Below, piece by piece: positions 10,045 to 11,021 of a DNA stretch of 64,000 nt. The stretch is from NCBI RefSeq assembly GCF_013167455.1, contig NZ_CP038328.1. One strand, written 5' to 3'. Positions within the stretch are counted from its first letter, which is position 1. Each line of letters starts with the position of its first letter. A model generated the notes under the pieces. It was not told where the DNA came from. It saw only the letters and a program-made list of their open reading frames with translations, and made no database searches. The position numbers and the translations under genes are program-made. This DNA comes from Escherichia coli O157:H7. Lineage in GTDB: Bacteria > Pseudomonadota > Gammaproteobacteria > Enterobacterales > Enterobacteriaceae.

Positions 10045-10833
10045 ATGGTTCAGCGTATTACTATTGCGCCGCAAGGCCCGGAGTTTTCCCGTTTTGTGAT
10101 GGGCTACTGGCGATTGATGGACTGGAACATGTCCGCCCGCCAGCTGGTCAGTTTTATTGAAGAGCATCTGGATCTCGGCGTGACCACCGTGGACCATGCT
10201 GATATTTATGGTGGCTATCAGTGCGAAGCGGCGTTTGGCGAGGCGCTGAAACTGGCACCTCACCTGCGTGAGCGGATGGAAATCGTCAGTAAATGCGGTA
10301 TCGCGACGACCGCGCGTGAAGAAAACGTCATTGGTCATTACATCACTGACCGCGATCACATCATTAAGAGCGCCGAACAGTCGCTAATTAATCTTGCGAC
10401 CGATCATCTGGATCTGCTGTTAATCCACCGCCCGGACCCGTTAATGGATGCCGATGAAGTGGCGGACGCGTTCAAACATCTGCATCAGAGCGGCAAAGTG
10501 CGTCATTTTGGCGTATCCAACTTCACGCCTGCGCAATTTGCCCTGTTGCAATCACGTCTGCCGTTTACCCTTGCCACTAATCAGGTGGAAATATCCCCGG
10601 TACATCAGCCGTTACTGCTGGATGGCACGCTCGACCAACTGCAACAACTGCGTGTTCGTCCGATGGCGTGGTCCTGCCTTGGTGGTGGTCGTCTGTTTAA
10701 TGATGATTATTTCCAGCCGCTGCGTGATGAACTGGCTGTGGTGGCGGAGGAGTTAAACGCGGGCTCGATTGAACAGGTGGTTTACGCCTGGGTATTACGT
10801 TTACCGTCGCAGCCGCTGCCAATTATCGGCTGA
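10045..10833 (+). CDS. ydhF: Aldo-keto reductase YdhF, truncated by in-frame TGA at 10831-10833 (frame continues to 10941)
   Basis: ORF track 262 aa. Same frame continues after the TGA as GKIERVRAAVEAETLKMTRQQWFRIRKAALGYDVP to TAA at 10939-10941, giving 298 codons, which equals the recalled full-length YdhF. Confidence 0.8.
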   Translation: MVQRITIAPQGPEFSRFVMGYWRLMDWNMSARQLVSFIEEHLDLGVTTVDHADIYGGYQCEAAFGEALKLAPHLRERMEIVSKCGIATTAREENVIGHYITDRDHIIKSAEQSLINLATDHLDLLLIHRPDPLMDADEVADAFKHLHQSGKVRHFGVSNFTPAQFALLQSRLPFTLATNQVEISPVHQPLLLDGTLDQLQQLRVRPMAWSCLGGGRLFNDDYFQPLRDELAVVAEELNAGSIEQVVYAWVLRLPSQPLPIIG

Positions 10834-11021
10834 GGTAAAATTGAGCGCGTACGGGCAGCTGTCGAAGCAGAAACACTGAAAATGACCCGTCAACAATGGT
10901 TTCGTATCCGTAAAGCGGCACTGGGGTACGACGTACCGTAAGCACTTTTAGGAATAGCCGCCGTTCAAAAATGTGTCACTGGTTTACACTTATTCAGGAA
11001 TGCACAATGAACGGAGGTCCT

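Follow-up and report, generated by a model that had tools for sequence, protein, structure and literature searches.

Why does the reading frame of ydhF, a gene for an aldo-keto reductase (AKR), break off before its end in Escherichia coli O157:H7? The gene lies in a stretch of 64,000 nucleotides of O157:H7 DNA (contig NZ_CP038328.1), referred to here as the window, and a TGA codon separates most of its frame from the last part. Such a stop may reflect a sequencing error, a codon that is recoded or read through, a truncation that leaves a working protein or a true loss of the gene, and a loss may be confined to one strain or shared by a lineage. Our results make it very probable that a vertically inherited nonsense mutation of single origin, TCA (Ser263) to TGA, made ydhF a pseudogene in the O157:H7 lineage; that function was lost is what we infer from the missing part of the protein.

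The interrupted frame and its ancestral codon

The mechanically called open reading frame (ORF) at 10045-10833 on the + strand encodes 262 amino acids and ends, in the window translation, with a TGA at 10831-10833 immediately after the residues LPIIG. Past the TGA the same frame reads on through 35 sense codons, GKIERVRAAVEAETLKMTRQQWFRIRKAALGYDVP, to a TAA at 10939-10941. An earlier note on this DNA had reported both the stop and the continuation, and its coordinates and sequence were exact. When the codon is restored the product has 298 residues, the length of K-12 YdhF (WP_000250656.1) and of PDB 1OG6, in agreement with the full length given in the note. The note was also right that the protein is truncated but put the loss at 35 residues; 36 residues are lost, as Ser263 goes with the 35 that follow it. 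The putative pseudogene at 10045-10941 (+ strand) is an ancestral frame of 298 codons and a stop, broken at codon 263, as indicated by its translation and by 100% identity to EDL933_RS12710. Its distal part at 10834-10941 (+ strand) is an orphaned 3' coding remnant, consisting of 35 sense codons and the original TAA and identical to K-12.

Codon 263 is TCA (Ser), and the product has 298 residues, in K-12, in O145:H28 RM13514 and in an avian pathogenic E. coli (APEC) O1 strain. Alignment to K-12 ydhF, a check proposed in the earlier note, located a C>G substitution at window position 10832, and the suggestion of a TCA-to-TGA-type nonsense change was exactly right. Nucleotide identity between the window gene and K-12 ydhF is 98.3%, with 15 differences, of which 14 are synonymous and one is the nonsense change. 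The proteins are identical over residues 1-262 and 264-298. The 105 nucleotides past the stop are unchanged from K-12, and no differences occur downstream of gene position 788. The finding of 14 synonymous changes and only one nonsense change clearly points to purifying selection on ydhF until the nonsense event. A reference YdhF that itself ended at LPIIG would have removed the case for truncation; the orthologues from E. coli, Salmonella and Klebsiella all reach ...GYDVP.

Distribution and timing of the stop codon

The assignment of the premature TGA at 10831-10833 (+ strand), with TCA (Ser263) as the ancestral codon and the C>G single-nucleotide polymorphism (SNP) at 10832 as its cause, draws on the K-12 comparison and on a survey of 5,425 complete E. 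coli genomes. The survey, also suggested in the earlier note, used a 53-nucleotide probe centred on the TGA (window 10807-10859). This 53-mer was found at 100% identity in 296 of the 5,425 genomes, and the remaining genomes differ from it by at least one base. Carriers of the TGA sampled across the ranking were all O157:H7 or ATCC 43894. Chance does not account for the stop, which is one defined substitution when set against more than 5,100 genomes that have a sense codon at the position of 10831-10833. A near-full-length ydhF is present in 5,418 of the 5,425 genomes, a count that takes no account of pseudogene status in individual genomes.

When the window allele was 'repaired' to TCA, it matched exactly 10 genomes at 100% over 897 nucleotides. 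These are the O55:H7 strains CB9615, RM12579, USDA5905, DEC5A, DEC5D and TB182A, together with 2013C-4465, FDAARGOS_946, the sorbitol-fermenting O157 strain 493/89 and LSU61. Two further O55:H7 strains, DEC5B and DEC5E, have an intact ydhF with slightly different alleles. The O157 and O55:H7 ydhF alleles are separated by one substitution only. As the same allele is found with TCA in O55:H7, 493/89 and LSU61, the stop arose after the split from sorbitol-fermenting O157 (493/89) and LSU61.

A bound in the other direction comes from uidA, the gene for beta-glucuronidase, at 39711-41524 (+ strand). In the window, uidA has the classic GG insertion of O157:H7 (gene positions 685-686; window 40395-40396), which shifts the frame after ...VVATGQG, and the gene is labelled 'frameshifted' in RefSeq; the +93 T>G marker SNP, also well known, lies at window 39803. 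A uidA probe without the GG gave a 100% match in only two O157:H7 genomes, PV15-279 and F3113. The ydhF gene has the internal stop in both of these, and uidA is annotated as intact in PV15-279. Ogura et al. (2018, PMC6256406) described PV15-279 as a beta-glucuronidase-positive O157:H7 with an intact uidA, in a clade consistent with the stepwise evolution model. The presence of the ydhF stop without the uidA GG in PV15-279 and F3113 indicates that the stop predates the loss of uidA. The comparisons thus date the ydhF stop to a time later than the split from sorbitol-fermenting O157 (493/89) and LSU61 and earlier than the uidA GG frameshift.

The window holds another lesion of the same operon. 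The glucuronide porin gene uidC, at 42933-44197 (+ strand), has a 1-bp deletion near gene position 1016 and is frameshifted in RefSeq. It is already frameshifted, with the same pseudogene flag, in O55:H7 CB9615 and in PV15-279, indicating that the uid operon was already in decay by the time that beta-glucuronidase was lost. The order of losses that these genomes indicate is a uidC frameshift at or before O55:H7, followed by the S263 stop in ydhF and then by the uidA GG insertion, which is confined to typical O157:H7. Over the 34 kb between window positions 8778 and 42778, only about 20 differences, the uidA GG indel among them, separate the window from PV15-279. In so shallow a lineage, the absence of decay in ydhF is uninformative about selection.

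Effect on the protein and alternative explanations

In AKRs, NADPH binding is aided by the segment that follows the last barrel strand, and the helices beyond it close the barrel. The Pfam domain PF00248 (Aldo_ket_red) covers residues 18-291 of the restored YdhF (model positions 3-289 of 291; E = 7.6e-47), and the stop removes residues 263-298, that is, about 29 residues of this domain and the tail. The predicted O157 product lacks a complete (alpha/beta)8 barrel with the post-last-strand segment and the C-terminal helices. The 36 lost residues are almost invariant in the orthologues of Salmonella (4R9O) and Klebsiella (7TWZ). A distant aryl-alcohol dehydrogenase, 7BBY (E = 7e-9), still shows the segment as G-S/T-x-x-x-E-R-I/V-R ... 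W-F. The equivalent of residue 263 is Ser in E. coli, Salmonella and Klebsiella and Thr in 7BBY. The position of the 36 residues within the AKR domain and their near-invariance in the Salmonella and Klebsiella orthologues make loss of function of the O157 YdhF likely; the removal of a conserved C-terminal AKR segment, already claimed in the earlier note, is borne out by these comparisons. Crystal structures of full-length YdhF as an aldo-keto reductase are available (PDB 1OG6 and 1UR3). The purified K-12 protein carries out the NADPH-dependent reduction of an alpha-hydroxyketone in vitro (PMC12084309), and so there was an enzyme activity to be lost. YdhF was also among the proteins detected in non-O157 Shiga toxin-producing E. 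coli in a rumen proteomics study (PMC12136435), an observation that we did not use as evidence.

The catalytic tetrad was assigned by BLASTP alignment to AKR1B1, for which we used a sequence 100% identical to PDB 1EL3; counting Met as residue 1, Asp50, Tyr55, Lys83 and His128 of YdhF align to Asp44, Tyr49, Lys78 and His111. Both BLASTP and phmmer aligned only YdhF residues 24-186 to AKR1B1, leaving out the C-terminal third. A Smith-Waterman alignment of the C-terminal parts of the two proteins fell in a different register, and 109 of 500 shuffles scored at least as well. Judged by the endpoints of the Pfam model, YdhF 263 corresponds to AKR1B1 263/264 to within about one residue, which is an approximate mapping only. 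The equivalence of Ser263 to the serine of the NADPH 2'-phosphate-binding 'IPKS' motif of AKR1B1 was not confirmed at the level of residues by BLASTP, by phmmer or by the shuffle-controlled alignment. A single-sequence AlphaFold2 model was set aside: its mean predicted local distance difference test (pLDDT) score was 46.6, with values below 50 for residues 236-298, and its helices at 266-277 and 282-292 were not used as evidence.

The C>G substitution has a second effect on the local sequence. By changing TCAGGT to TGAGGT it creates a Shine-Dalgarno-like GAGG 4 nucleotides upstream of an in-frame ATT (Ile266; window 10832-10842). Re-initiation at this ATT seems improbable, given the short spacing and the great rarity of ATT as a start codon.

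The earlier note had left two options, pseudogenisation and a sequencing error. An error of sequencing or assembly, with a sense codon at 10831-10833 in the true genome, would fit the observation that single-base changes are the kind that errors produce. The window, which is collinear with RefSeq EDL933 (CP008957, reverse strand, 2365864-2429863), differs from it at 4 of 64,000 bases, all single-base differences elsewhere (window/RefSeq: 932 A/G, 15251 T/A, 42983 T/C and 60085 G/A), which may reflect another O157:H7 strain or an older assembly of EDL933. However, 296 complete genomes, produced in many laboratories and on many platforms, share the same TGA context, and one of the carriers, PV15-279, was assembled from PacBio reads with Illumina polishing (PMC6256406). 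The 897 nucleotides of the window ydhF are 100% identical to those of many O157:H7 genomes, including EDL933. RefSeq has independently recorded an 'internal stop' in the ydhF of EDL933, F3113 and PV15-279, and its pseudogene loci for the O157:H7 gene are EDL933_RS12710, E3160_RS14545 and ECpv15279_RS11725. Furthermore, the distribution of the TGA tracks phylogeny. We consequently give an error next to no credence. These data indicate that the stop is a genuine, derived and clonally inherited mutation of single origin, neither an error nor a trait of one strain. Pseudogenisation thus survives from the earlier note, with the amendment that 'strain-specific' is too narrow: the stop is lineage-wide, being fixed in typical and beta-glucuronidase-positive O157:H7 and absent from O55:H7, 493/89 and LSU61. 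A genuine TGA could still be subject to programmed recoding, with selenocysteine inserted at the UGA, or to another programmed read-through, giving the full-length protein; the stop is indeed a UGA, and the frame downstream of it is fully intact. Against this, the ancestral and near-universal residue is Ser (TCA), not Cys or selenocysteine, and position 263 lies outside the catalytic tetrad. No selenocysteine insertion sequence (SECIS) stem-loop was found 3' of the UGA by an Rfam scan of 10600-11100 or by folding of the 65 nucleotides from the UGA against shuffles. The best Rfam score was 15 bits, compared with a gathering score of 45, and all matches were to unrelated small nucleolar RNA models. 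The minimum free energy of the 65 nucleotides was -9.8 kcal/mol, compared with a shuffled mean of -12.4 kcal/mol (z = +1.0), and there was no stable hairpin. Recoding is therefore extraordinarily improbable, and the judgement of the earlier note, which saw no SECIS-like element and considered selenocysteine unlikely, holds.

Several points qualify the case for a simple loss of the gene. The catalytic tetrad lies upstream of the stop and is kept in the product of the truncated ORF (10045-10833, + strand). Of the stop codons, UGA is the one most prone to read-through in E. coli, and a trace of full-length protein may be made in this way. The 3' remnant has no further mutations, in a lineage too young for an inference on selection, and the statement that all carriers are O157:H7 is based on sampled rows of the 296. 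The tetrad and the undecayed frame, together with a start codon and upstream region that are unchanged and 100% identical to strains with intact neighbours, would also suit a ydhF that still works as a hypomorph or variant, by means of an active 262-residue product, a new activity or read-through of the UGA as Trp. This is quite unlikely. The Pfam AKR domain loses about 29 residues, and the lost segment is conserved both among enteric orthologues and in the 7BBY homologue. In this family the post-last-strand segment helps to bind NADPH and closes the barrel, a point of family knowledge for which the residue-level mapping is approximate. Moreover, an undecayed frame is uninformative when the O157 and O55:H7 alleles are one substitution apart. 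Adaptive loss, in which positive selection (in the bovine gut, for instance) and not drift would have carried the ydhF stop to fixation as O157:H7 emerged, is similarly unlikely. The stop is fixed across the whole typical and beta-glucuronidase-positive O157:H7 clade, and it is one of a series of metabolic gene losses in the lineage, with uidA and uidC in the same window. However, in a clonal lineage, hitch-hiking or drift would also be expected to fix a single SNP on an internal branch, and no phenotype of ydhF loss is known. There was no sign of independent, convergent inactivation of ydhF among the surveyed genomes, in which near-full-length copies were counted and pseudogene status was not screened individually. 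In sum, it is unlikely that the stop is anything other than a neutral casualty, whether because the loss was selected (e.g., if the activity is harmful in the bovine gut) or because the locus is partly functional through read-through or a tetrad-keeping protein, and we have no positive support for either.

We favour, instead, pseudogenisation of ydhF by a nonsense mutation. The C>G substitution at 10832 arose once on the line of descent from O55:H7 to O157:H7, before the split of beta-glucuronidase-positive and typical O157:H7. Translation would then stop at codon 263, producing a 262-residue protein that keeps the tetrad and lacks the last 36 residues. These residues follow the last barrel strand (...PLPIIG) and include the conserved G-S/T-x-x-x-E-R-I/V-R segment and the C-terminal helices. 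The truncated enzyme is probably inactive or unstable, and fixation of the stop was presumably neutral, through drift or hitch-hiking during a clonal bottleneck, and not the result of selection.

Prior record and meaning for O157:H7

The ydhF stop is an ordinary lineage-specific pseudogene that has already been annotated by RefSeq and catalogued by Zhou et al. The RefSeq pseudogene of O157:H7 is the identical feature, with 100% nucleotide identity and the 'internal stop' label, and differs in nothing from the gene described here. Zhou et al. (2010, PMC2806823) listed in their supplementary file 4 a non-synonymous SNP of the O157 lineage in ydhF (G2583_2042 = ECs2356 = Z2664; Sakai position 2324571), and their main text does not discuss it. 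New here are the survey numbers and the timing of the stop, later than the divergence from sorbitol-fermenting O157 and LSU61 and earlier than the uidA frameshift.

The locus and its gene order, nemR - ydhL - ydhF - sodC - ydhK, are shared with K-12 (b1647; WP_000250656.1; 1OG6/1UR3). The difference lies in codon 263, which is TCA in a 298-residue protein in K-12 and TGA in O157, with a predicted product of 262 residues. A scan of 9600-11600 for promoters and terminators found no sigma-70-like sites and terminator-like matches at chance level only, and it is uninformative on polarity towards sodC. The neighbouring ydhK (FUSC family; 11544-13556, - strand) also varies within the lineage. Supplementary file 4 of Zhou et al. 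(2010, PMC2806823) lists an O157-lineage non-synonymous SNP in ydhK at Sakai position 2323563. The YdhK protein is WP_000994327.1 in EDL933 and WP_000994328.1 in PV15-279, F3113 and O55:H7 DEC5E, and the window differs from PV15-279 at 11840, within ydhK. This pattern suggests a missense change in ydhK that is younger than the split from the beta-glucuronidase-positive clade.

The closest parallel to the ydhF stop is the uidA +686 GG frameshift of typical O157:H7. Each is a small, clonally inherited lesion in the gene of a metabolic enzyme and serves as a lineage marker. In contrast to the ydhF nonsense SNP, which is earlier and present in both PV15-279 and F3113, the uidA lesion is a later 2-bp insertion that is absent from both. 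The loss of uidA also has a diagnostic phenotype, whereas none is known for ydhF. The ydhF stop offers a clean marker of single origin that separates typical and beta-glucuronidase-positive O157:H7 from O55:H7, sorbitol-fermenting O157:H- and LSU61. Taken with the lesions that uidC and uidA carry in the window, it provides three dated steps of gene loss in one well-studied pathogen lineage. Beyond such bookkeeping the stop matters little. It does mean that O157:H7 probably lacks one of the aldo-keto reductases of E. coli, which may be relevant when carbonyl-reduction or detoxification data from K-12 are extrapolated to O157:H7.
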